Source: Escherichia phage vB_EcoA_fTuEco01. Taken from it: a stretch of DNA of 44,320 bases. Made by a program: the position numbers and the translations under genes. The stretch lies in the sequence record MZ031013.1, one strand, 5' to 3'. The notes under the pieces are model-generated. The model was given only the letters and a program-made list of their open reading frames with translations. It ran no database searches and had not been told where the DNA came from. Of the stretch, positions 2,361-43,899 are shown one piece after another (the stretch's first letter is position 1; the number at the start of each line of letters is the position of its first letter).

Positions 2361-2391
2361 TAACCTAACTAACTAAATGAGGATTAATAAC

Positions 2392-2748
2392 ATGGCTATG
2401 TCTAATAAGACTTACTCTCAGGTTTACAACACCGCTCATGCTGCATTAGTTGAACGTATCTGGGATGATGCTATTGATTGTATCGATAACGCACATGATG
2501 CAATCCATGAGGTGGCGGATAGTGCTGTACCAATCTATTATGCTGACATCTTCTCGGTGATGGCCAGTGAAGGCATCGACCACTTCTTCGAGGATTCTGG
2601 CTTAATGCCAGACACTAAGGATGTGACGGTCGTACTACAAGCCCGTATTTATGAACAACTCACCATTGATTTATGGGAACGTGTTCAAGATATGATTGAT
2701 GCGTACATCGATTCCGCTGAGGATTCAGAAGAAGAGGAGGAAGAATAA
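2392..2748 (+). CDS. ocr: Ocr-like DNA-mimic anti-restriction protein (T7 gene 0.3 homologue), 118 aa
   Basis: The translation MAMSNKTY...[15 protein letters not shown]...[13 protein letters not shown]...[15 protein letters not shown]...EDSEEEEEE matches T7 Ocr as I recall it, nearly residue for residue in the conserved blocks, including the acidic C-terminus. Start moved to the ATG at 2392 to match T7 MAMSN. Confidence 0.85.
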
Positions 2749-17671: not shown

Positions 17672-18671
17672 GCTCCGCAGCTTGTACAAAGACTCCGAGG
17701 TACTTGATGCAATCGAGCAAGCTACCGACGAGAAAGGTAATGTTAACTACAATGAGATGGCACGTGTATTATCGTGTCATCCTGTGGGTAAGAAGATTAC
17801 CCGCCAGTTGGCTCGATACTGGCATGGTCAATTCAAGAAGACCAAGAAGAATGGTGATTACTACCAGACTCTTCTGCAAGAGGATAAGCGTATCAAAGAA
17901 GAGCGTAAGCTCAGGACTCCTGACCGCTATGAGGATTTGGCTATTGTACCACTGCCTGACTCGCCTCATCGAAGTGTACTGGTAATTCCTGACACTCATG
18001 CACCTTACGAGCACCCAGATACATTAGAGTTTCTGGCAGCGGTGGCAGCACGTTACCGTCCAGACACTGTAGTTCATCTTGGTGATGAGGCAGATAAACA
18101 TGCCTTATCGTTCCACGATTCAGACCCCAATCTTGATAGTGCTGGCATGGAGTTAGAGAAGGCCCGTGTCTTTATGCATAAATTACACAAGATGTTTCCT
18201 GTGATGCGCCTGTGTCATTCTAATCACGGCTCTATGCACTTCCGTAAGGCAAGCACCAAAGGTATTCCTGTACAATATCTGCGTACCTATCGTGAAGTCT
18301 TCTTCCCGCATGGGGGTGGCGACCAGTGGGATTGGCAGCATACACACGTTCTTGAGTTGCCGAATGGTGAACAGGTTGCATTTAAGCATCAACCCGCAGG
18401 CTCAGTCTTAGCAGATGCAGCGCATGAGCGCATGAACTTAGTGTGCGGTCACTTGCATGGTAAGATGTCTGTGGAGTATGCACGTAATACACATGAACAG
18501 TATTGGGCTGTGCAGGGCGGCTGTTTGATTGATGAGTCATCTCGTGCATTTGCCTATGGTCGTGAGTCCAAATACAAGCCAGCATTAGGTTGTGTGGTTA
18601 TTCTGGAGGGTGTGCCGCACATTGTCCCGATGCAGACCAATAATGACAATCGCTGGATTGGTAAAATTTAG
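17664..18671 (+). CDS. Calcineurin-like metallophosphoesterase with an N-terminal extension of about 100 aa, about 335 aa
   Basis: Motifs in order: IPDTHAP (D-x-H), HLGDEADK (G-D-x-x-D), CHSNHG (G-N-H-like), CGHLHG (G-H-x-H). TTG start at 17664 lies 6 nt after AAGGAGG; the track starts at 17631. Confidence 0.7.
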   Translation: MGKLRSLYKDSEVLDAIEQATDEKGNVNYNEMARVLSCHPVGKKITRQLARYWHGQFKKTKKNGDYYQTLLQEDKRIKEERKLRTPDRYEDLAIVPLPDSPHRSVLVIPDTHAPYEHPDTLEFLAAVAARYRPDTVVHLGDEADKHALSFHDSDPNLDSAGMELEKARVFMHKLHKMFPVMRLCHSNHGSMHFRKASTKGIPVQYLRTYREVFFPHGGGDQWDWQHTHVLELPNGEQVAFKHQPAGSVLADAAHERMNLVCGHLHGKMSVEYARNTHEQYWAVQGGCLIDESSRAFAYGRESKYKPALGCVVILEGVPHIVPMQTNNDNRWIGKI

Positions 18672-18686
18672 TTGACACTATAGAAC
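18666..18686 (+). promoter_or_regulatory. Phage RNAP promoter variant (ATTTAGTTGACACTATAGAAC)
   Basis: Consensus match with variation in the -12 to -9 region; overlaps the stop of the upstream gene. Confidence 0.65.
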
Positions 18687-20272: not shown

Positions 20273-20459
20273 TTCCATGAAGGCAACTCGTGCCGTTGAG
20301 GTGGCAGAGGCTATCTTTGAAACTCTATCTTGTGGCATGGAAGTGCCATATACTTTACTGGCTGATGCAGAAGAACTTGGTCTTTCTGTAGAAGCTATCC
20401 AAGAGAAGGTTGAAGAACTCTATGGTACAGACGAAGAAGAAACCGACTATTTCATTTGA
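20244..20459 (+). CDS. Hypothetical acidic protein, 71 aa
   Basis: GGGAGA RBS before ATG 20244; overlaps the ligase 3' end. Confidence 0.45.
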   Translation: MTKMNQISFDSMKATRAVEVAEAIFETLSCGMEVPYTLLADAEELGLSVEAIQEKVEELYGTDEEETDYFI

Positions 20460-20592
20460 GGGTATGGAGATGCTTGAGATGATTCTCAAGCCTTCTTCTC
20501 CGAAGGTGACTAAGACTCACGAAGAATTAATCGTAGATGAAGTGAAGCGTTACATTATGGATTGTGTTAGAGCACAACTGGTGGTCCAATGA
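20410..20592 (+). CDS. Hypothetical protein, up to 60 aa, start uncertain
   Basis: ORF track entry; several in-frame ATGs, none with a strong RBS. Confidence 0.35.
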   Translation: MKNSMVQTKKKPTISFEGMEMLEMILKPSSPKVTKTHEELIVDEVKRYIMDCVRAQLVVQ

Positions 20593-21050
20593 TACGTCCA
20601 GCTTCATTCCTAGATATTCCTGAGATTATAAACCTTGGGAATAAATATGTGGAAGAGGAAGTCAAGGTTGTAGCCCACCACTCAGCCTCATGGAATGCAG
20701 AACAAAGCGCACATAACCTTTGTGCATCTCTTAGTAGAGAAGATTTATTCCTATGGGTTGCTGTAGATGAAGGGCAGATTGTAGGTTTTCTGTGGGCTGG
20801 CTATCACGAGTTGGCCCCTTGGACACCTGTAAGAGTTGCATCTGACATTCTCTTTTATATTGTACCAGAGAAGCGAGGGACACTGCTCGGTATGCGCCTC
20901 ATCAAAGCCTTGAAGCAATGGGCTAATGGTAGTGGGTGTTCCGAGGTACGCCTGTCTATCGCTTCTGGTATTAATGAAGAACGTGTCGGACGTATGTATA
21001 AGCGACTTGGCTTTGAACAGTTTGGCACTGTGTATAACCTGAAGTTCTAA
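20589..21050 (+). CDS. GNAT-family N-acetyltransferase, 153 aa
   Basis: Acetyl-CoA-binding motif A pattern VPEKRGTLLGMRLIKAL (R-G-x-x-x-G) and typical length; ATGA overlap with the upstream ORF. Confidence 0.65.
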   Translation: MIRPASFLDIPEIINLGNKYVEEEVKVVAHHSASWNAEQSAHNLCASLSREDLFLWVAVDEGQIVGFLWAGYHELAPWTPVRVASDILFYIVPEKRGTLLGMRLIKALKQWANGSGCSEVRLSIASGINEERVGRMYKRLGFEQFGTVYNLKF

Positions 21051-21059
21051 GGAGATCAC

Positions 21060-21269
21060 ATGGGTATTGTAAAGAAAGCATTTAAGGCTGTCGGTCTTGC
21101 TCAAGATGCACCGCGTATTGAAGCCAAGGTTCCTGCTCAGCAGCTTGAGCGTAAGCCTGAGACTGAAGCTGAAGATATACAGATTGGTGCAGGTGGTGAT
21201 GATGCGACTGCATCTGCAAAAGGTAAGCGCGGGCTTGTCCGTCCGGTAGCTTCTAGCTTGAAGGTGTAA
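21060..21269 (+). CDS. Hypothetical Gly/Ala-rich small protein, 69 aa, possibly a T7 gp6.7-like virion protein
   Basis: Position immediately upstream of the portal gene and composition similar to T7 gp6.7; by analogy only. Confidence 0.4.
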   Translation: MGIVKKAFKAVGLAQDAPRIEAKVPAQQLERKPETEAEDIQIGAGGDDATASAKGKRGLVRPVASSLKV

Positions 21270-21270
21270 T

Positions 21271-22821
21271 ATGAAACAGAGCACAGATTTGGAGTATGGA
21301 GGTAAGCGGTCTAAGATACCTAAGCTATGGGAGAAGTTCTCCACTAAACGTAGCTCTTTCCTTGATAGGGCGAAGCATTACTCCAAATTAACCTTGCCCT
21401 ATCTGATGAATGACAAAGGTGATAACGAGACTTCGCAGAACGGATGGCAAGGTGTAGGTGCTCAGGCAACTAACCACCTAGCCAACAAGCTAGCGCAAGT
21501 GCTATTCCCTGCACAGCGCTCCTTCTTCCGTGTAGACCTAACTGCACAAGGTGAGAAGATTCTTAATCAGCGTGGCCTGAAGAAGACAGAGCTAGCTACT
21601 ATCTTTGCTCAAGTGGAAACACGGGCAATGAAAGAGTTAGAGCAACGTCAATTCCGGCCTGCTGTAGTAGAAGCATTCAAGCATCTTATTGTTGCTGGTA
21701 GCTGTATGCTATACAAGCCAAGCAAAGGTGCAATCAGTGCAATCCCAATGCATCACTATGTAGTTAATCGTGACACTAATGGCGACCTGTTAGACATTAT
21801 CTTACTGCAAGAAAAATCCTTGCGTACATTTGACCCTGCTACACGTGCTGTAGTAGAGGTTGGCTTGAAAGGTAAGAAATGCAAGGAAGATGACAGCATT
21901 AAGCTGTACACTCATGCTAAGTACCTTGGTGATGGATTTTGGGAACTCAAGCAATCTGCCGATGATATCCCTGTGGGTAAGGTGAGTAAAATCAAATCAG
22001 AAAAGTTACCATTCATCCCACTGACTTGGAAGCGAAGCTATGGTGAGGATTGGGGTCGCCCTCTTGCAGAGGATTACTCTGGTGATTTATTCGTTATCCA
22101 ATTCTTATCTGAAGCAGTTGCCCGTGGTGCTGCACTGATGGCAGATATCAAGTACCTGATTCGTCCGGGTGCTCAGACTGATGTTGACCACTTTGTTAAC
22201 TCTGGCACTGGTGAAGTTGTCACTGGTGTAGAAGAAGATATCCATATTGTACAGTTAGGTAAGTACGCAGACCTCACACCTATTAGCGCGGTCCTAGAGG
22301 TGTACACTCGCCGTATCGGTGTCGTCTTCATGATGGAGACAATGACACGCCGTGATGCCGAACGTGTTACTGCTGTAGAAATCCAGCGAGATGCGTTAGA
22401 GATTGAGCAGAACATGGGCGGTGTATATTCCCTCTTTGCTACTACTATGCAATCGCCAGTAGCGATGTGGGGTCTGCTGGAGGCAGGTGATTCATTCACA
22501 AGTGACCTAGTTGACCCTGTGATTATCACAGGCATTGAAGCATTAGGGCGCATGGCTGAACTGGATAAGCTGGCAAACTTCGCTCAGTACATGTCACTGC
22601 CTTTGCAATGGCCTGAGCCTGTCCTAGCTGCTGTGAAGTGGCCTGATTACATGGATTGGGTACGTGGTCAAATCTCTGCTGAACTGCCATTCCTTAAATC
22701 GACTGAAGAGATGGAGCAAGAACAGGAAGCGCAGATGCAAGCACAGCAAGCACAGATGCTTGAAGAAGGTGTGGCTAAGGCCATTCCGGGTGTAATTCAA
22801 CAAGAACTTAAGGAGGCGTAA
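21271..22821 (+). CDS. Portal (head-tail connector) protein, 516 aa
   Basis: Size and position at the head of the structural module, followed by an acidic scaffold gene and the capsid gene (T7 gene 8/9/10 order). Assignment rests on synteny and size. Confidence 0.85.
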   Translation: MKQSTDLEYGGKRSKIPKLWEKFSTKRSSFLDRAKHYSKLTLPYLMNDKGDNETSQNGWQGVGAQATNHLANKLAQVLFPAQRSFFRVDLTAQGEKILNQRGLKKTELATIFAQVETRAMKELEQRQFRPAVVEAFKHLIVAGSCMLYKPSKGAISAIPMHHYVVNRDTNGDLLDIILLQEKSLRTFDPATRAVVEVGLKGKKCKEDDSIKLYTHAKYLGDGFWELKQSADDIPVGKVSKIKSEKLPFIPLTWKRSYGEDWGRPLAEDYSGDLFVIQFLSEAVARGAALMADIKYLIRPGAQTDVDHFVNSGTGEVVTGVEEDIHIVQLGKYADLTPISAVLEVYTRRIGVVFMMETMTRRDAERVTAVEIQRDALEIEQNMGGVYSLFATTMQSPVAMWGLLEAGDSFTSDLVDPVIITGIEALGRMAELDKLANFAQYMSLPLQWPEPVLAAVKWPDYMDWVRGQISAELPFLKSTEEMEQEQEAQMQAQQAQMLEEGVAKAIPGVIQQELKEA

Positions 22822-25032: not shown

Positions 25033-25040
25033 TACCTATG

Positions 25041-25075
25041 CCCTATCTACCTTGCGTAGGTAGGGTTCTTTTTGT
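25041..25075 (+). terminator. Rho-independent terminator after the capsid gene (T-phi analogue)
   Basis: ccctatctac-cttgc-gtaggtaggg forms a 10-bp stem followed by TTCTTTTT. Confidence 0.75.
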
Positions 25076-25086
25076 TAGGAGGATTC

Positions 25087-25824
25087 ATGCCTGTAATTAG
25101 ACAAACCAGTAAAGTAGGACATATGATGGAAGATGTGGCCTTCCAGATTATTGATAGTAAGCTGGAAGCGGTAAACTTGTGTATGCGAGCTATTGGTCGT
25201 GAGGGTGTGGATTCTCTCGACTCAGGTGACTTGGACGCAGAAGACGCAAGCAAGATGATTGACATCGTATCCCAGCGGTTTCAGTACAACAAAGGAGGTG
25301 GCTGGTGGTTCAATCGTGAACCAAACTGGCAGATTGCACCTGATACCAATGGTGAAGTCAATCTGCCTAACAACTGCCTAGCAGTATTGCAGTGTTATGC
25401 TTTAGGTGAGAAGAAAGTACCCATGACTATGCGAGCAGGTAAGCTCTACTCTACATGGAGTCATACCTTTGATATGCGTAAGCATGTGAATGCTAATGGT
25501 ATGATTCGTCTTACCTTACTCACCTTACTTCCATATGAGCATCTACCTACTAGTGTAATGCAGGCTATTGCCTATCAAGCTGCTGTAGAGTTTATTGTGT
25601 CTAAGGATGCAGATCAGACTAAGCTAGCCACTGCACAGCAGATTGCCACTCAACTTCTTATGGATGTGCAATCCGAACAAATGTCACAAAAGCGACTGAA
25701 TATGCTTGTGCATAACCCTACGCAGCGTCAGTTCGGCATTATGGCGGGTGGTTCTCAGAATGTACCTGCTTACTCTCATTCACCATATGATAGTTGGGCA
25801 CTTCGTCCGTGGGAGGATCGTTAA
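25087..25824 (+). CDS. Tail tubular protein A (T7 gene 11-like), 245 aa
   Basis: AGGAGG RBS 4 nt before ATG 25087; synteny capsid - tubular A - tubular B. Confidence 0.75.
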   Translation: MPVIRQTSKVGHMMEDVAFQIIDSKLEAVNLCMRAIGREGVDSLDSGDLDAEDASKMIDIVSQRFQYNKGGGWWFNREPNWQIAPDTNGEVNLPNNCLAVLQCYALGEKKVPMTMRAGKLYSTWSHTFDMRKHVNANGMIRLTLLTLLPYEHLPTSVMQAIAYQAAVEFIVSKDADQTKLATAQQIATQLLMDVQSEQMSQKRLNMLVHNPTQRQFGIMAGGSQNVPAYSHSPYDSWALRPWEDR

Positions 25825-28226
25825 TGGAAGTACAAGGTTCATTAGGGAGGCAAATCCAAGGGATTAGCCAGCAACCTCCAGCGGTACGTCTTGATGGTCA
25901 ATGTACGACTATGGTGAACATGGTCCCTGATGTAGTGAATGGGACTCAATCCCGCATGGGTACAACTCACATTGCTAAGCTCTTGGATGAAGGTACAGAT
26001 AATATGGCAACGCACCATTATCGCAGGGGTGAGGGGGATGAAGAGTATTTCTTCACCTTAAAGAAAGGGCAAGTGCCAGAGATATTTGATAAGCATGGAC
26101 GCAAGTGCAATGTCATCTCTCAAGATGCACCTATGACCTACCTTTCTGAAGTTGTTAACCCTAGGGAAGATGTGCAATTCATGACTATAGCTGATGTTAC
26201 TTTTATGCTTAACCGTAGGAAAGTGGTTAAAGTTAGTAATAGGAAGTCACCTAAAGTTGGAGATAAAGCCATTGTGTTTTGTGCATATGGTCAATACGGT
26301 ACATCTTATTCTATCATAATTAATGGAACTACAGCTGCTAGTTTTAAAACACCAGATGGGGGAAGTGCAGAACATGTTGAACAAATACGAACGGAACGTA
26401 TCACTTCTGAATTGTACTCCAAGTTGCAGCAATGGAGTGGTGTGAATGACTATGAAATACAAAGAGATGGTACGAGCATATTTATAGAGAGACGCGATGG
26501 TAAAAGTTTCACAGTAACAACTACCGATGGTGCAAAAGGTAAGGACTTAGTGGCTATCAAGAATAAAGTTAGCTCTACTGACCTACTCCCTTCTCGTGCG
26601 CCTGCTGGTTATAAAGTACAAGTGTGGCCTACTGGCAGCAAACCTGAGTCTCGTTACTGGCTGCAAGCTGAGCCTAAAGAGGGAAACCTTGTGTCTTGGA
26701 AAGAAACAATAGCTGCTGATGTATTACTTGGGTTTGATAAAGGCACAATGCCTTACATTATTGAACGTACAGGTATTATTGACGGTATAGCTCAATTCAA
26801 GTTAAGACAAGGTGATTGGGAAGATCGTAAAGTAGGGGACGACTTGACTAACCCTATGCCCTCTTTTATTGATGAGGAAGTGCCCCAGACAATAGGTGGG
26901 ATGTTCATGGTACAGAACCGTCTATGCTTTACAGCAGGCGAAGCGGTTATTGCTTCTCGTACATCATACTTCTTCGATTTCTTTCGTTATACGGTTATCT
27001 CTGCACTGGCAACTGACCCATTTGATATTTTCTCAGATGCGAGTGAAGTTTATCAATTGAAACACGCAGTAACCTTAGATGGCGCTACCGTGTTATTCTC
27101 TGATAAGTCACAATTCATTTTGCCAGGAGATAAACCGCTAGAGAAATCCAACGCCTTACTCAAGCCTGTCACAACATTTGAAGTTAACAATAAAGTGAAG
27201 CCAGTGGTAACTGGTGAATCGGTAATGTTTGCCACTAATGATGGTTCTTACTCTGGTGTACGAGAGTTCTATACAGACTCTTATAGTGACACTAAGAAGG
27301 CACAAGCAATCACAAGTCATGTGAATAAACTCATCGAAGGTAACATTATCAACATGGCAGCAAGTACCAATGTCAACCGATTGCTTGTCACTACTGATAA
27401 GTATCGTAACATAATTTATTGCTATGATTGGTTATGGCAAGGTACAGACCGTGTACAATCAGCATGGCATGTATGGGAGTGGCCTATGGGTACAAAGGTG
27501 CGAGGTATGTTTTATTCTGGTGAATTACTTTATCTACTCCTTGAGCGAGGCGATGGCGTCTATCTGGAGAAGATGGACATGGGTGATGCACTAACCTATG
27601 GTTTGAATGACCGCATCAGAATGGATAGGCAAGCAGAGTTGATCTTCAAGCATTTTAAAGCAGAAGATGAATGGATATCTGAACCACTTCCTTGGACTCC
27701 TACTAACCCAGAACTTTTGGATTGCATCTTAATAGAAGGGTGGGATTCATATATTGGAGGTTCTTTCCTGTTCAAATATAACCCTAGTGATAACACCTTG
27801 TCTACAACCTTTGACATGCATGATGATAACCACGTAAAAGCGAAGGTTATTGTTGGTCAGATTTACCCTCAAGAGTTTGAACCTACACCTGTAGTTATCA
27901 GAGATAGGCAAGATCGTGTATCCTATATTGATGTACCTGTTGTGGGGTTGGTTCACCTTAATCTTGATATGTATCCTGATTTCTCTGTGGAAGTTAAGAA
28001 TGTGAAGAGTGGTAAAGTACGCAGGGTGCTAGCGTCAAACCGTATAGGTGGTGCTCTCAACAACACAGTAGGTTATGTTGAACCAAGGGAGGGTGTCTTC
28101 AGATTCCCACTGAGGGCTAAGAGTACGGATGCTGTTTATCGTATTATTGTAGAATCACCTCATACATTCCAGCTTCGCGATATTGAGTGGGAAGGGAGCT
28201 ACAATCCAACCAAAAGGAGGGTCTAA
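25824..28226 (+). CDS. Tail tubular protein B (T7 gene 12-like), 800 aa
   Basis: TAATG overlap with the upstream gene and GGGAGG RBS; size matches T7 gp12 (794 aa). Confidence 0.75.
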   Translation: MEVQGSLGRQIQGISQQPPAVRLDGQCTTMVNMVPDVVNGTQSRMGTTHIAKLLDEGTDNMATHHYRRGEGDEEYFFTLKKGQVPEIFDKHGRKCNVISQDAPMTYLSEVVNPREDVQFMTIADVTFMLNRRKVVKVSNRKSPKVGDKAIVFCAYGQYGTSYSIIINGTTAASFKTPDGGSAEHVEQIRTERITSELYSKLQQWSGVNDYEIQRDGTSIFIERRDGKSFTVTTTDGAKGKDLVAIKNKVSSTDLLPSRAPAGYKVQVWPTGSKPESRYWLQAEPKEGNLVSWKETIAADVLLGFDKGTMPYIIERTGIIDGIAQFKLRQGDWEDRKVGDDLTNPMPSFIDEEVPQTIGGMFMVQNRLCFTAGEAVIASRTSYFFDFFRYTVISALATDPFDIFSDASEVYQLKHAVTLDGATVLFSDKSQFILPGDKPLEKSNALLKPVTTFEVNNKVKPVVTGESVMFATNDGSYSGVREFYTDSYSDTKKAQAITSHVNKLIEGNIINMAASTNVNRLLVTTDKYRNIIYCYDWLWQGTDRVQSAWHVWEWPMGTKVRGMFYSGELLYLLLERGDGVYLEKMDMGDALTYGLNDRIRMDRQAELIFKHFKAEDEWISEPLPWTPTNPELLDCILIEGWDSYIGGSFLFKYNPSDNTLSTTFDMHDDNHVKAKVIVGQIYPQEFEPTPVVIRDRQDRVSYIDVPVVGLVHLNLDMYPDFSVEVKNVKSGKVRRVLASNRIGGALNNTVGYVEPREGVFRFPLRAKSTDAVYRIIVESPHTFQLRDIEWEGSYNPTKRRV

Positions 28227-28948
28227 TGGCTATAGGTTCAGCCGTTATGGCTGGTATGTCTTCTATTGGTAGCATGTTTGCAGGCAGTGGTGCAGCAGCC
28301 GCTGCTGGAGGTGCTGCCGCAGGTGGCGGAGGTTTGCTAGGTTCACTAGGTGGATTCCTAAGTGGCTCTACTGCTGGTTTCTCTAATGCTGGCCTTCTTG
28401 GTGCTGGCCTTCAAGGGTTAGGCTTGATTGGTGATCTATTTGGTGGAAGTGATGAAGCCAAGGCGATGAAGAAAGCACAAGAAGAGCAATGGCGGCAGCA
28501 GCTTATTGCTACACAAGAGGCGTACAAGACAGTGGCAGACGCAGAACGTTCTGCTGCTAAACAATATCATGCAGATGCAATCAGTAATCAGGCTTCACTG
28601 CTACAGCAGCGAGCACAGGTTGCATTACTTGCTGGGGCTACTGGTACTGGTGGTAATTCTGTGTCCTCTATGCTTAATGACTTAGCAGCAGATGGCGGCA
28701 GGAACCAGAGTACCATCATTGATAACTATGAGAATCAGAAGATTAATTTCACCAACCAACTTAAGTCTATCCAACGTGGTGGTCAGATGCAGATGCGTGA
28801 GTTTAAGAAGCCTTCTGCTATGAGTACCTTGGTTCAAGGTATTCCAAGTCTGGCATCTGCCTATGTAACTGGTAGTAAGTCTGGCAAGGCATTGGGTAAA
28901 GCCTTAACTGATTCTCGTACATATTCATCTGGAACAAGAGGTATTTAA
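28226..28948 (+). CDS. Internal virion protein with Gly-rich hydrophobic N-terminus (T7 gp14-like), 240 aa
   Basis: TAATG overlap; N-terminal AGMSSIGSMFAGSGAAAAAGGAAAGGGGLLGSLGGFLSG is membrane-inserting-like; position in the internal-core gene block. Confidence 0.65.
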   Translation: MAIGSAVMAGMSSIGSMFAGSGAAAAAGGAAAGGGGLLGSLGGFLSGSTAGFSNAGLLGAGLQGLGLIGDLFGGSDEAKAMKKAQEEQWRQQLIATQEAYKTVADAERSAAKQYHADAISNQASLLQQRAQVALLAGATGTGGNSVSSMLNDLAADGGRNQSTIIDNYENQKINFTNQLKSIQRGGQMQMREFKKPSAMSTLVQGIPSLASAYVTGSKSGKALGKALTDSRTYSSGTRGI

Positions 28949-31960: not shown

Positions 31961-34900
31961 ATGGAACAAGATATTAAGACTAATTGGGCTGGATATGTCC
32001 AGTCTACTCCTGAGCCGTTTTCTATTGAGGCGGCTCCGGTATCGGCTCCTACGATACGCCAGCGTAATGAGTTACAAGAGCAAGTTCTTGAAGCCAAAGC
32101 TGATGCGGACATCTTAGGTGCTGTAGGTGCTGCCTTCCAGAATGAATGGTTGGCATTCGGAGGTAAGCGATGGTATGACCGTGCCACTGCTGATTTCACA
32201 CCCCAACCTGACTTTGAAATCCAACCAGAGCAACGTGAAGCTCTTCGCTTCAAATACGGAACGGATATGATGCAGACAATCACTGAGGGTGTTCGTTCTG
32301 AGGATGAATTAAACTTCCGTATTCAGAATGCTGATGAAGACCTTGAGCGCAATAAGCGCATTGCTCAGGCTGGATGGGCTGGCTCTGTGGCAACGATTGG
32401 CGCTGCTGTGCTTGACCCAGTGGGTTGGGTTGCCTCTATCCCAACTGGCGGTGCAGCCAAAGTCGGCCTCGTAGGTCGTGCCGTGCGTGGAGCTATCGCC
32501 GCTGGCGTGAGCAATGCCGCTATTGAATCCGTGTTAGTACAAGGCGACATGACTCGTGATTTAGATGACATTATGGTAGCACTAGGCTCCGGTATGGCTA
32601 TGGGTGGCGTTATTGGCGCTGTAGCGCGTGGTAGGGCCACTAAGCTCAGTGAGCAAGGAGATGACAGGGCTGCGAGTGTTGTGCGCAGTGCAGACGCAGG
32701 GGACCGCTATGTGCGTGCTGTTGCTGATGACAGTATCGGTGCGATGCGTGTTAAGGGTGAAGAGGTACTCACTGAGGGTGCATTTGATATCTCTAGCAAA
32801 GGTGAAGATTTGCTGAAAACCCTACAGCGGGAAGGTAATGCAATTGATATGACACCTCGCCGCTGGGCCGGAACTATGTCTGCCCTTGGGACTGTCGTGC
32901 ACTCCTCTCAGGATGCTAGTGTTCGTGGCCTCGGTGCTCGCCTGTTTGAGTCTCCGCAAGGTTTAGGTATGCAAAAGGCATCTGCCAGTCTTATGCAGAA
33001 TACCAACTTGAATCGACTGAAGTCTGCTGATATGAACCGTTTCAATGACGGGTTTGACTTATGGCTCAAAGAGAATAATATCAATCCAGTTGCAGGCCAT
33101 ACTAACTCTCACTATGTGCAACAATATAATGAGAAGGTATGGGAAGCTGTACGCATCGGTATGGATGAGTCTACGCCTAAGTCTATCCGTATGGCAGCAG
33201 AGGGACAGCAAGCTATGTATCGTGAAGCATTAGCATTACGTCAACGCTCTGGTGAAGCTGGGTTTGAAAAGGTTAAAGCAGATGATAAGTACATGCCTGA
33301 TATTTTTGACAGTATGAAGGCTCGTCGTCAATTTGGTATGCACGATAAGGAGGACATCATTGAGCTATTCTCTCGTGCATACCAGAATGGTTCTCGTAAG
33401 GTTCCAAAGGAAGTGGCTGATGAGATTGCACGTGCACAAGTAAACCGTGTTGTGGATGCTACTCTGACAGGACGTATGAGTTTCGAAAAGGCTATGTCTG
33501 GTCAGACTAAAGCAGAGTATGAAGCAATAATGCGCAAGGCAGGCTTCAGTGATGAAGAAATTGAAAAGATGGTAGAAGCTCTGGATAATAAAGAAACCAG
33601 AGATAATATCTCTAACCGAGCTAAGATGAGTTTAGGCTTAGATGTTACTCAAGAGTACAATGGCATTCGTATGCGTGACTTTATGAATACTAACGTGGAA
33701 GAGTTAACAGATAACTACATGAAGGAAGCGGCAGGTGGTGCTGCCTTGGCTCGTCAAGGTTTCTCTACCTATCAGGCTGCACTTAATGCAATTGACCTTG
33801 TAGAGCGAAATGCACGAAATGCAGCTAAAGATACAAAAGCACACGCACAATTCGAAGCAGAGTCTGCTAAGATTCGTCAATCAGAGCCTGATTACAAGAA
33901 GGCACAAGCGAAGATTGAAGAGTTAAAGAAGCGACTTAAATTGAAAGAGAAAGACGAAGCAGCGGGTCTGGCTATTGATGAGGAAATCCGTCAGATGCGA
34001 GAAGGGCTTCGCTTGATTATGGGTAAATCTATCGATGCAGACCCACAGGCTTTATCTACTAAAATGCTGCGTCGTGGTCGTGACATTACAGGTGTACTTC
34101 GCTTAGGTCAGATGGGCTTCGCACAGCTAGGTGAACTTGCTAACTTCATGGGTGAGTTTGGTATTGCTGCAACCACTATAGCTTTAGGTAAGCAATTCCG
34201 CTTTACATCTAAGGCTTTGCGGAGCGGTGATGGCTTCTTCCGAGATAAGAACTTGGCAGAAGTAGAGAGGATGGTAGGTTACATTGGTGAGGATAACTGG
34301 CTAACAACCAAGGGTGCACGTCCAGATGAGTTTGGTGATGTAACCACAGTAAGAGGGATGATGGCTCACTTTGACCAATCCATGAACTCAATACGTCGTG
34401 CTCAGACCAACCTATCACTCTTCCGCATGGCACAGGGTTCTCTGGAGCGAATGACCAATAGGCAAATAGCTTTGTCTTTCATTGACCACCTTGAAGGCAA
34501 GAAGATTATTCCTCAGAAGAAACTGGAGGAACTTGGTCTTACTCAGGAGTTCATGACTAATCTACAGAAGCACTATGATGCTAACTCTAAAGGTTCTGGC
34601 TTGCTTGGCTTTGATACAATGCCTTATGCCATGGGTGAAACTTTAGCTAATGCTATTCGTCGTAAGTCAGGTCTAATTATCCAACGTAACTTCATTGGTG
34701 ATGAAGGTATCTGGATGAACAAAGCACTAGGTAAGACATTTGCACAGCTTAAGTCATTCTCTCTTGTATCTGGTGAGAAGCAATTTGGTCGAGGGATTCG
34801 CCACGATAAAATTGGTCTTGCTAAGAAGACAGCTTACGGGTTTGCTTTGGGTTCAATAGTGTATGCGGCAAAAGCCTATGTGAACTCTATTGGGCGAGAA

Positions 34901-39067: not shown

Positions 39068-39355
39068 ATGGCTAAATATGGTACTACAGGTTCTGTTACG
39101 GGTCAGGCTTTTCGAGTGAAAGCAGTACAAACTATTGCAACGGCAATTCCTATGCCTGTTGTTGCTGAAGAAGACCTTAAGAAGAAAGATCATCCTATCA
39201 ACATCAAATATTTATCAGGTAAACAGAGAGGTGCAATGGTTGTTATTTCGAGAGCGGACACAACCGTGCATATTGCTGTTGCACGTGGTAGTGAGCCCAC
39301 CGACGTTTGGGATGTAACTGCTATGGACCCCATTGCTGTTACACCAGGGGAGTGA
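39068..39355 (+). CDS. Hypothetical protein P2, 95 aa, second tandem paralogue
   Basis: GAAGGAGGA RBS; KYLSGKQRGAMVVISRADTTVHIAVARGSEPTDVWDV aligns with P1 and P3. Confidence 0.6.
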   Translation: MAKYGTTGSVTGQAFRVKAVQTIATAIPMPVVAEEDLKKKDHPINIKYLSGKQRGAMVVISRADTTVHIAVARGSEPTDVWDVTAMDPIAVTPGE

Positions 39356-41463: not shown

Positions 41464-43899
41464 ATGATTCAAAGACTAGGTTCTTCATTAGTTAAATTCA
41501 AGAGTAAAATAGCAGGTGCAATCTGGCGTAACTTGGATGACAAGCTCACCGAGGTTGTATCGCTTAAAGATTTTGGAGCCAAAGGTGATGGTAAGACAAA
41601 CGACCAAGATGCAGTAAATGCAGCGATGGCTTCAGGTAAGAGAATTGACGGTGCTGGTGCTACTTACAAAGTATCATCTTTACCTGATATGGAGCGATTC
41701 TATAACACCCGCTTCGTATGGGAACGTTTAGCAGGTCAACCTCTTTACTATGTGAGTAAAGGTTTTATCAATGGTGAACTATATAAAATCACGGATAACC
41801 CTTATTACAATGCTTGGCCTCAAGACAAAGCGTTTGTATATGAGAACGTGATATATGCACCTTACATGGGTAGTGACCGTCATGGTGTTAGTCGTCTGCA
41901 TGTATCATGGGTTAAGTCTGGTGACGATGGTCAAACATGGTCTACTCCAGAGTGGTTAACTGATCTGCATCCAGATTACCCTACAGTGAACTATCATTGT
42001 ATGAGTATGGGTGTATGTCGCAACCGTCTGTTTGCCATGATTGAAACACGTACTTTAGCCAAGAACGCACTAACCAATTGTGCATTGTGGGATCGTCCTA
42101 TGTCTCGTAGTCTGCATCTTACTGGTGGTATCACTAAGGCTGCAAATCAGCGTTATGCAACAATCCATGTACCTGATCACGGATTATTCGTGGGCGATTT
42201 TGTTAACTTCTCTAATTCTGCGGTAACAGGTGTAACTGGTGATATGAAAGTTGCAACAGTTATAGATAAGGACAACTTCACGGTTCTTACAGCCAATCAG
42301 CAGACCTCTGATTTGAACAATGCTGGAAAGAATTGGCACATGGGTACTTCCTTCCATAAGTCTCCATGGCGTAAGACAGATCTTGGCCTGATACCTCGTG
42401 TTACTGAAGTTCATAGCTTTGCTACTATTGATAACAATGGCTTTGTTATGGGTTATCACCAAGGCGACGTAGCTCCACGCGAAGTTGGTCTTTTCTACTT
42501 CCCTGATGCTTTTAACAATCCATCTAATTATGTTCGTCGTCAGATACCCTCTGAGTACGAACCGGATGCGGCAGAGCCATGCATCAAGTACTATGACGGT
42601 GTGTTATACCTTATCACTCGTGGTACTCGTGGTGACAGTCTTGGAAGCTCTTTGCATCGCAGTAGAGATATAGGTCAAACTTGGGAGTCACTAAGATTTC
42701 CACATAATGTGCATCATACTACTTTACCGTTTGCTAAGGTAGGAGATGATCTTATTATGTTTGGTTCAGAACGTGCAGAAAATGAATGGGAAGCAGGTGC
42801 ACCTGATGATCGTTACAAGGCATCTTACCCCCGCACCTTCTATGCACGATTGAATGTAAACAAGTGGAGTGCAGATGACATTGAATGGGTTAACATCACA
42901 GACCAAATCTATCAGGGTGACATTGTTAACTCCAGTGTAGGTGTAGGTTCGGTGGTAGTTAAAGACAGTTACATTTACTATATCTTTGGTGGTGAAAACC
43001 ATTTCAACCCAATGACTTATGGTGACAACAAAGATAAAGACCCATTTATTGGACATGGACACCCTACTGATATATACTGCTATAAGATGCAGATTGCAAA
43101 TGACAGTCGTGTATCTCGTAAGTTTACATATGGTGCAACTCCAGGTCAGGCTATACCTACCTTCATGGGTACTGATGGTATTCGTACTATCCCTGCTCCA
43201 CTTCACTTATCAGGAGAGGTAGTTGCCGCAGATATGACTGTCGAACATCTTACCCTGAAGGCAAGTACAAGTGCTAATATTCGCTCAGAGATGCTGATGG
43301 AAGGTGAATATGGGTTCATTGGTAAGACTATACCAACGGATAACCCAACCGCACAACGTGTTATCATCTCGGGTGGAGAAGGTACAGCAGCAGATAAAGG
43401 TGCTCAGATTACCCTACATGGAGCAGGTTCTAGTACTTCTAGACGCGCAGTGTATAATGCCAATGAGCACTTGTTCCAAAGTGGGGCTATCATGCCATAC
43501 AACGATAACCTGTACCCTGCTGGCGGTCCTCATAATAGATTCACCACTATCCATCTTACAAGTGACCCTATTATTACATCGGATGCCACTCATAAGTATG
43601 GCTCACAAGGTATTGATGAGAGTGTACTAAAGGCATGGGGTAAGGTTGCCTTCAAGCAGTACAAGTTGATTGGCGAGATGTCTCGTGGTGTGCATCACAC
43701 TCACTTTGGTGTATTGGCACAAGACATTGTAGCTGCTTTTGCATCCGAAGGGTTAGATGCAATCGACTTCGGCATTGTCTCCTTCGAAGAAGGTCAGTTT
43801 GGTGTTAGATATAGTGAAATCTTAATCTTGGAGGCTGCTTATACTCGCTATCGTTTAGACAAGTTAGAGGAGATGTATGCCACTAATAAAAGCAGTTAA
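41464..43899 (+). CDS. Tailspike endo-N-acetylneuraminidase (endosialidase) with C-terminal intramolecular chaperone domain, 811 aa
   Basis: Two sialidase Asp-box motifs (SGDDGQTW and SRDIGQTW), a C-terminal region typical of self-cleaving tailspike chaperone domains, AAAGGAGG RBS, and a length of 811 aa that matches K1E/K1-5 endosialidases as I recall them. Confidence 0.8.
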   Translation: MIQRLGSSLVKFKSKIAGAIWRNLDDKLTEVVSLKDFGAKGDGKTNDQDAVNAAMASGKRIDGAGATYKVSSLPDMERFYNTRFVWERLAGQPLYYVSKGFINGELYKITDNPYYNAWPQDKAFVYENVIYAPYMGSDRHGVSRLHVSWVKSGDDGQTWSTPEWLTDLHPDYPTVNYHCMSMGVCRNRLFAMIETRTLAKNALTNCALWDRPMSRSLHLTGGITKAANQRYATIHVPDHGLFVGDFVNFSNSAVTGVTGDMKVATVIDKDNFTVLTANQQTSDLNNAGKNWHMGTSFHKSPWRKTDLGLIPRVTEVHSFATIDNNGFVMGYHQGDVAPREVGLFYFPDAFNNPSNYVRRQIPSEYEPDAAEPCIKYYDGVLYLITRGTRGDSLGSSLHRSRDIGQTWESLRFPHNVHHTTLPFAKVGDDLIMFGSERAENEWEAGAPDDRYKASYPRTFYARLNVNKWSADDIEWVNITDQIYQGDIVNSSVGVGSVVVKDSYIYYIFGGENHFNPMTYGDNKDKDPFIGHGHPTDIYCYKMQIANDSRVSRKFTYGATPGQAIPTFMGTDGIRTIPAPLHLSGEVVAADMTVEHLTLKASTSANIRSEMLMEGEYGFIGKTIPTDNPTAQRVIISGGEGTAADKGAQITLHGAGSSTSRRAVYNANEHLFQSGAIMPYNDNLYPAGGPHNRFTTIHLTSDPIITSDATHKYGSQGIDESVLKAWGKVAFKQYKLIGEMSRGVHHTHFGVLAQDIVAAFASEGLDAIDFGIVSFEEGQFGVRYSEILILEAAYTRYRLDKLEEMYATNKSS

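Follow-up and report, generated by a model that had tools for sequence, protein, structure and literature searches.

Several podophage proteins with links to acetyltransferases, or to the genes beside them, have been described. T7 gp13 ('IVP-A') is needed for morphogenesis, is not kept in virions and has an HHpred match to acetyltransferases; the SIO1/VpV262-type acetyltransferase in the gp13 slot is non-structural, and in phiRIO-1-like phages the gene in the acetyltransferase slot is needed for infectious particles and is absent from virions, like T7 gp13 (PMC4819975). T7 gp7 ('host range') has been reported as non-essential (2026 preprint). When LUZ19 Rac (gp28) is expressed alone, the alpha subunit of the host RNA polymerase is cleaved and lysine acetylation rises, effects that need the acetyl-CoA pocket; the homologue in Rac's slot in LKA1 causes no cleavage, and the effect is specific to the genus Phikmvvirus (PMC7552054). 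T7 gp7.3, a basic protein, is present in six copies at the adaptor-nozzle junction, where its lysines contact the DNA end, is ejected on infection and is needed by particles in order to adsorb (PMC11784390), and the small pre-portal open reading frame (ORF) found across Autographiviridae has been proposed as its functional orthologue, an 'ejection wedge' (10.64898/2026.05.18.726046). Here, we characterize computationally a GNAT N-acetyltransferase gene at 20589..21050 (+) of a 44,320-nucleotide stretch of Escherichia phage vB_EcoA_fTuEco01 (MZ031013.1; the whole stretch is termed the window), and we propose, with a probability of about 35%, that its product is a non-virion protein acetyltransferase tied to the assembly of ejection proteins or of the tail.

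The gene is an ATG-started ORF of 153 amino acids (aa) with a TAA stop. Its ATG shares the tetranucleotide ATGA (20589-20592) with the TGA of the small ORF upstream, a 4-bp overlap, and is preceded 5-9 nt upstream by GGTGG. The coding sequence and its cofactor motif are as follows:

20589..21050, plus strand: coding sequence of a GNAT N-acetyltransferase, 153 aa, orthologue of SP6 gene 28 / K1E gene 27 (ORF, Pfam, PHROG 1249, AlphaFold2 model, Foldseek and ratio of non-synonymous to synonymous substitution rates, dN/dS)
20874..20912, plus strand: motif A, that is, the beta4-alpha3 pyrophosphate-binding loop and the start of alpha3, RGTLLGMRLIKAL, residues 96-108 (HMMER alignment, family conservation and AlphaFold2 model)

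The gene is real, and its product has, by profile matches and structure prediction, the GNAT fold. The protein scores above the Pfam gathering thresholds of PF00583 Acetyltransf_1 (40.1 bits, cut-off 20.7), PF13508 Acetyltransf_7 (38.4, cut-off 27) and PF13673 Acetyltransf_10 (24.8, cut-off 23.6), and its match to PHROG 1249 'acetyltransferase' (1e-53) is full-length, covering residues 1-151. An AlphaFold2 model built on 43 homologues (mean predicted local distance difference test, pLDDT, 90.4) predicts the topology b1-a1-a2-b2-b3-b4-a3-b5-a4-b6-b7, which is the canonical GNAT order. When this model was compared with the PDB using Foldseek, 865 chains were recovered at E<=0.001 and the top 50 were all GNATs (E 1e-9 to 1e-7, TM-scores mostly 0.6-0.8, identity 14-25%), including Naa60, phosphinothricin/bialaphos/arsinothricin acetyltransferases, DpA, AAC(6')/AAC(3) and proteins annotated 'RimI'. 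The GNAT identity assigned in the first-pass annotation, which was made from the sequence alone, is thus borne out by Pfam, PHROG 1249, the AlphaFold2 model and Foldseek.

A profile search of 1.84 billion representative proteins returned 1221 clusters at E<1e-10; among the 150 best family matches listed, nearly all are ~150 aa long and align over their full length. Six representatives are long, made up either of GNATs in tandem or of a GNAT joined to unannotated sequence. Four metagenomic ones (P0065, P0068, P0075 and P0088) are tandem double GNATs of 318-385 aa, with no other domain fused. Domain fusions were dropped as a functional hint, the long representatives offering only tandem GNATs or unannotated sequence. 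On the minus strand, an ORF of 197 aa (20751..21344) runs antisense to the greater part of the GNAT gene and to the ORF after it. It has most probably arisen by chance, because both the family match and purifying selection fall on the plus strand and no record annotates it.

The acetyl-CoA-binding motif that had been recognized at first pass corresponds to RGTLLGMRLIKAL, the beta4-alpha3 loop in a variant form, which HMMER pairs with RGKGLGVQLLQAL, the pyrophosphate-binding beta4-alpha3 loop of P. aeruginosa PA4866; in the AlphaFold2 model, a helix is predicted to span residues 100-114. The textbook signature of GNAT motif A is Q/R-x-x-G-x-G/A. The loop in the window reads R96-G97-T98-L99-L100-G101, in which the canonical central G is replaced by L99, giving a variant R-G-x-x-x-G/A. 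Among 183 family representatives, the ends of the signature are kept (R96 in 98%, G/A101 in 91%), position 99 is variable and G97 is a conserved, family-specific residue (90%), giving the family motif [YF]-V-x-P-E-x-R-G-[STG]-x-x-[GA]. The same 183-sequence alignment shows conservation of D/E86 (93%) and Y/F137 (88%; Y 75%, F 13%), as well as of R3, D9, E23, G66, A84, Y/F90, P93, L104, W111, G127, G141 and G146. We take Y137 to occupy the usual general-acid position of GNATs (the 'LYxxLGF' motif). The gene is under purifying selection (dN/dS 0.13 against SP6). Retention of the loop despite ~25-30% identity, together with an acidic beta4 residue, Tyr137 and this dN/dS, argues for a functional acetyl-CoA-dependent enzyme, and this small single-domain GNAT probably retains transferase activity.

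As for its orthologues, the protein is 75% identical to SP6 gp28, 94-99% to Vectrevirus proteins and 99.3% to mutPK1A2 gp33. SP6 gene 28, K1E gene 27 and the K1-5 'acetyltransferase' agree with it in length (153 aa) and in their neighbours (ligase, two small ORFs, 69-aa ORF and portal), and nothing of substance sets the window GNAT apart from this group. The gene is already known, being publicly annotated as 'acetyltransferase' (SP6 gene 28, K1E gene 27 and many Vectrevirus genomes); this existing annotation, the SP6-like character of the genome and the linkage to head-tail and ejection-protein genes were all absent from the first-pass annotation. The informative clue is the gene context, of which the immediate elements are:

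20410..20592, plus strand: small upstream ORF of about 56-60 aa, PHROG 6507 (a family of unknown function), with the ATGA overlap taken as translational coupling to the GNAT gene
21060..21269, plus strand: T7 gp7.3-like tail-channel or 'wedge' ejection protein, 69 aa, matching PHROG 1320 'host range and adsorption protein' at 3.9e-11
21271..22821, plus strand: portal (head-tail connector), the first large structural gene of the predicted GNAT transcription unit, assigned from annotation in relatives of 96-98% identity

T7 gp7.3 belongs to the same PHROG 1320 (9.7e-30), and the 69-aa ORF is preceded by GGAG. Its product is basic at the N-terminus and again in a C-terminal segment (KGKRGLVRPV).

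The ligase-to-portal block is collinear in 135 phage records, in which the GNAT gene is a syntenic core gene. The order of ligase, small ORFs, GNAT, small gp7.3-like ORF and portal is seen in Molineuxvirinae, Colwellvirinae and unclassified Autographiviridae, and a GNAT followed by 1-3 small ORFs and then portal occurs in Vibrio phage phi-A318, Pseudomonas phage Njord (Colwellvirinae), Ralstonia phage Reminis and Rhizobium phage RHEph27. The pre-portal GNATs of these four phages belong firmly to the family, with scores of 102-171 bits against the family hidden Markov model (HMM); RHEph27 has a phiKMV-like layout, with RNA polymerase just upstream, yet carries a GNAT of the window family. Equally strong members in SIO1 and P12053L (both Zobellviridae) and in Yersinia phage YeP4 lie between tail tube B and IVP-B and therefore occupy the T7 gp13 slot. 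Distant representatives were followed into five metagenomic contigs, four of which are too short to inform; the fifth, from an SU10-type podophage, has its family member within the structural module.

Each genome holds one family member, at one place. The gp13-slot gene is missing from SP6-like, phiKMV-like and Colwellvirinae genomes, and in the pre-portal GNAT genomes of the window, LUZ19 and phi-A318 the gp13 slot holds no gene, a complementary distribution; the two genes that flank this slot in the window, for tail tube B (25794..28226) and for the first internal virion protein (28187..28948), overlap each other. An HMM scan of 408 ORFs in all frames of the window found no gp13-like ORF (the gp13 HMM matched none) and no second GNAT ORF, and the family HMM and the Rac-family HMM each picked only the ORF at 20589..21050. 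Overall, the family occupies one or the other of two slots, always adjoins genes whose products are small virion proteins that are ejected, and is non-structural in the relatives examined. The phages that carry it infect Escherichia, Salmonella, Klebsiella, Proteus, Erwinia, Vibrio, Pseudomonas and roseobacters.

Evidence for co-transcription comes from promoter-like matches of the SP6 type (ATTTA-N-N-N-GACACTATAG), of which the window contains about 10-11 against 0.03 expected. They lie on the plus strand at 2855, 6901, 9211, 10059, 13586, 15501, 18666, 23748 and 40959, with a weaker one at 32559. Two elements bear on the GNAT gene:

18666..18683, plus strand: SP6-type RNA polymerase promoter-like site nearest 5' of the GNAT gene, ATTTAGTTGACACTATAG, with 1 mismatch to the SP6 consensus, the closest of the set
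25040..25066, plus strand: first strong intrinsic-terminator-like hairpin downstream, past the major capsid gene, an 11-bp stem followed by a T-run

Downstream of 18666 the next promoter-like site is 23748, with none between the GNAT gene and portal. The site at 18666 and the hairpin at 25040 therefore place the GNAT gene on one predicted message with its neighbours, which would comprise nucleotide kinase, ligase, two small ORFs, GNAT, the 69-aa ORF, portal and scaffold.

The corresponding T7 genes were compared in the same way. T7 gp7 (L007:631-1029) is encoded directly 5' of gp7.3, the slot also held by the window GNAT and by Rac. An AlphaFold2 model of the T7 gp7 family (pLDDT 90.6) has the topology b-a-a-b-b-b-a-b-b, and its top 50 Foldseek matches in the PDB are all GNATs (E 8e-6 to 1e-4, TM 0.5-0.7); unlike the window GNAT, T7 gp7 (133 aa) is without the alpha4/beta6-beta7 segment and without the R-G loop. 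On the strength of the model, T7 gp7 is predicted with high confidence to have a truncated GNAT-like fold, which we offer as a lead; our search found no paper stating that it has such a fold. T7 gp7 matches PHROG 3986, to which Rac belongs, weakly (E 0.025), and in T7-like Pseudomonas phages such as KNP and gh-1 the place of gene 7 (gp6.7 - X - gp7.3 - portal) is taken by GNATs of the Rac family. T7 gp13 (PF11090) is likewise without the R-G cofactor loop and sits after tail tube B, whereas the window GNAT sits before portal. In P22 gp14 (L062:8911-9366, 'head morphogenesis', PF11039 DUF2824), the peptide YLPEIRG is similar to the family [YF]-V-x-P-E-x-R-G and has the same relative position. 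The links to T7 gp7, T7 gp13 and P22 gp14 are leads, supported for gp7 by the predicted fold, for gp13 by the published HHpred match, and by gene position.

We computed a GNAT fold, a conserved cofactor loop, purifying selection, synteny, a single copy per genome and two alternative slots, and from these we infer an enzymatic activity, a protein substrate and a role in assembly. In the proposed mechanism, the phage RNA polymerase would transcribe the GNAT gene together with those for the gp7.3-like protein, portal and scaffold, and the enzyme would act in virion assembly without becoming part of the virion. Its targets would be amino groups of small basic proteins that enter the tail channel or internal core during assembly and leave the particle at ejection; the candidates are the adjacent gp7.3-like protein and/or the gp14-like protein (28187..28948). 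The window GNAT would then correspond to the GNAT-like assembly factors that other podophages have in these two slots, T7 gp13/IVP-A and T7 gp7, but with its catalytic apparatus intact. A modest new angle is offered by the combination of a single copy, a location before the gp7.3-like gene or in the gp13 slot, an intact cofactor site and GNAT-like folds in the equivalent T7 slots. This pattern makes it testable whether podophages use acetylation in building the ejection apparatus, and could explain the old 'host range' and infectivity phenotypes of T7 genes 7 and 13. The gene belongs, moreover, to the core genome of a large group of phages that are candidates for therapy (K1E/K1-5/SP6-like, with Klebsiella and Proteus relatives).

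A broader version, which is speculative and which we think rather unlikely, places the pre-portal GNAT, as found in SP6-like phages, in Colwellvirinae and perhaps in phiKMV-like phages, at the root of a class of morphogenesis factors with the GNAT fold that runs through the podophages: it would be the ancestral form and would still be catalytic, and T7 gp13/IVP-A, T7 gp7 and P22 gp14 would be its degenerate descendants. The enzyme would acetylate the gp7.3-like wedge and gp14-like proteins, which plug the tail channel and are ejected first, and would thereby yield infectious particles. If this is true, acetylation would be integral to the way podophages assemble their tail or ejectosome.

Several observations weigh against the assembly role. 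Neighbourhood in T7-type genomes also mirrors expression timing, and linkage is no proof of a shared pathway. T7 gp13 and gp7 have lost the R-G loop, and if they are non-catalytic, the intact apparatus here wants another explanation. The only characterised GNAT in the slot, Rac, has the host and not the virion as its target (PMC7552054). Significant sequence links failed to emerge from profile-profile tests: the window family aligned with a 16-sequence gp13 alignment at E 0.0029 (probability 10.6%, 105 columns in GNAT register; not significant), T7 gp7 aligned in the same register with the window family at E 0.012 and with the Rac family at E 0.066 (neither significant), and a single-sequence hhalign of P22 gp14 with the window family gave E 0.27 (not significant). 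Furthermore, our literature searches found no functional study, substrate or phenotype for the SP6 gp28 family and no report of acetylated virion proteins.

The main rival is a Rac-like takeover, in which late acetylation of one or more host proteins would shut down or redirect host functions, a serious possibility if a doubtful one. Rac, a GNAT of ~155 aa, shares the slot of the window GNAT (gp27 small ORF, gp28, gp29 virion protein, gp30 portal), retains the acetyl-CoA loop as the window GNAT does, and provides the sole experimental precedent there, with a phenotype that needs the acetyl-CoA pocket (PMC7552054). The window family aligns with the Rac family in hhalign (probability 96%, E 3.9e-9, 98 columns), and the Rac-family HMM, built from 7 sequences from annotated phage records, matches the GNAT ORF (21.7 bits, E 3.5e-6) and none of the other ORFs among the 408. 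The phiKMV-like layout of RHEph27, with its window-family member, would suit such a role, as would the result that no T7 gp2-like or gp0.7-like family of host RNA polymerase inhibitors was matched among 10 early ORFs scanned against PHROGs. However, an hhalign probability of 96% is expected between any two GNATs, and Rac strays from the GNAT consensus in its C-terminal half (Pfam match to positions 8-88 of 116 only). Direct orthology to Rac was rejected on the basis of BLASTP (E 4.6) and of PHROG membership (Rac in PHROG 3986, the window GNAT in PHROG 1249, with no PHROG 3986 match for the window protein); the similarity is at superfamily level only. Alpha-subunit cleavage is, moreover, genus-specific, with the LKA1 homologue inactive, and a late position in the structural operon, together with members in the gp13 slot and in a structural module, poorly suits a host shut-off factor. 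Of the targets suggested in the first-pass annotation, only a host protein is plausible, by analogy with Rac (PMC7552054), and the others found no support. It is also conceivable, if quite improbable, that the protein is a non-catalytic GNAT-fold assembly chaperone that acts by binding, as presumed for T7 gp13 and P22 gp14, with the loop kept for structural reasons. Fold or slot is retained by T7 gp13, T7 gp7 and the gp7 homologues of the gh-1 type although they have lost the R-G loop, which indicates that the slot can be filled without the cofactor motif; the retention of R96, G97, G/A101, D/E86 and Y/F137 at ~25-30% identity is, by contrast, a pattern typical of selection on cofactor binding and catalysis.

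We consider it distinctly unlikely that the enzyme acetylates a small molecule, most plausibly a polyamine or diamine, and so tunes spermidine or putrescine during DNA packaging. The best PDB sequence matches of the protein itself are 4j3g and PA4866 (E ~1e-5), followed by SSAT (2e-4 to 5e-3), and the family profile ranks the polyamine acetyltransferase DpA best (7e-5) and SSAT2 next (4e-4), with SSAT1/2 and DpA recurring in the sequence and Foldseek searches. The conserved acidic residues D9, E23 and D/E86 would fit a cationic acceptor, and functional spermidine acetyltransferases are encoded by phages (PMC9992855). These polyamine matches are nevertheless weak (22-26 bits) and interleaved with phosphinothricin, aminoglycoside and N-terminal acetyltransferases. 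SpeG gave no match in the PDB sequence search, no NCBIfam equivalog was reached at its cut-off, and a systematic BLASTP/PSI-BLAST search for viral spermidine acetyltransferases listed nine candidates, none from SP6-like phages (PMC9992855). Cellular small GNATs (PA4866/phosphinothricin-type, DpA/SSAT, Naa60 and AAC(6')) resemble the window protein in fold and length (TM 0.7-0.8, with motif A and B regions aligned) at an identity of only 15-25%; since no group stands out and no equivalog is reached, substrate specificity is not transferable. An aminoglycoside-like substrate, as the first-pass annotation had suggested, and with it a role in aminoglycoside resistance, was rejected, the NCBIfam AAC(6') models scoring far below their cut-offs (best AAC_6p_group_E at 28.8 bits against 140, others 14-21 against 225-325). 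The toxin-antitoxin or defence component proposed alongside it met the same fate, and an anti-defence enzyme (AcrVA5-like, acting on a host immune protein) or a TacT/AtaT-like toxin acting on aminoacyl-tRNA is very improbable. GNATs do serve both uses elsewhere (AcrVA5: PMC9114340), and the small ORF that overlaps the GNAT start by 4 bp recalls modules of a GNAT and a ribbon-helix-helix (RHH) protein. Against this, PADLOC gave no defence-family match for the gene, no TacT/AtaT/KacT/ItaT toxin appeared in the 31 PDB sequence matches at E<=1 or in the top 50 Foldseek matches, and no RHH/antitoxin Pfam family matched at E<=10 in the upstream ORFs of the window and five relatives. The overlapping upstream gene of the T7-like phage KNP occupies the gp6.7 position, and a core gene held at a fixed position across many host genera and in 135 collinear records is unlike patchy anti-defence genes.

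With respect to the genome as a whole, the window is, as judged from nucleotide identity, a near-complete Vectrevirus genome of the SP6/K1E group (Autographiviridae, Molineuxvirinae) rather than a T7-type phage, being 95-98.5% identical to many Vectrevirus genomes (vB_EcoP_C, mutPK1A2, K1E and K1-5). The earlier description of the genome as 'T7-like' holds only loosely, the genome being SP6-like. The host follows from the tailspike:

41464..43899, plus strand: endosialidase tailspike, residues 38-705 of which match the endosialidase structures 1v0e/3gvl (E=0, 1305 bits)

Since this tailspike is an endosialidase, it fixes K1-encapsulated E. coli as the host. O-acetylation of the K1 capsule (polysialic acid) was rejected as a role for the GNAT, the family being spread over phages of hosts without a K1 capsule. 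NeuO, the known O-acetyltransferase of K1, belongs to the hexapeptide-repeat enzymes rather than to the GNATs.

Two further observations concern other parts of the window. Among the 10 early ORFs scanned, the gene at 2377..2748 (plus strand) belongs to the Ocr-like anti-restriction family PHROG 2568 (5.7e-49), and the nine others fall into PHROG families of unknown function. Finally, the K1E counterpart of a 95-aa ORF at 39068..39355 (plus strand), gp42, has been named 'putative acetyl-CoA acetyltransferase' (PMC4837284); because 95 aa is far below the size of a thiolase and the ORF has no PDB sequence match, this label is probably a misannotation.

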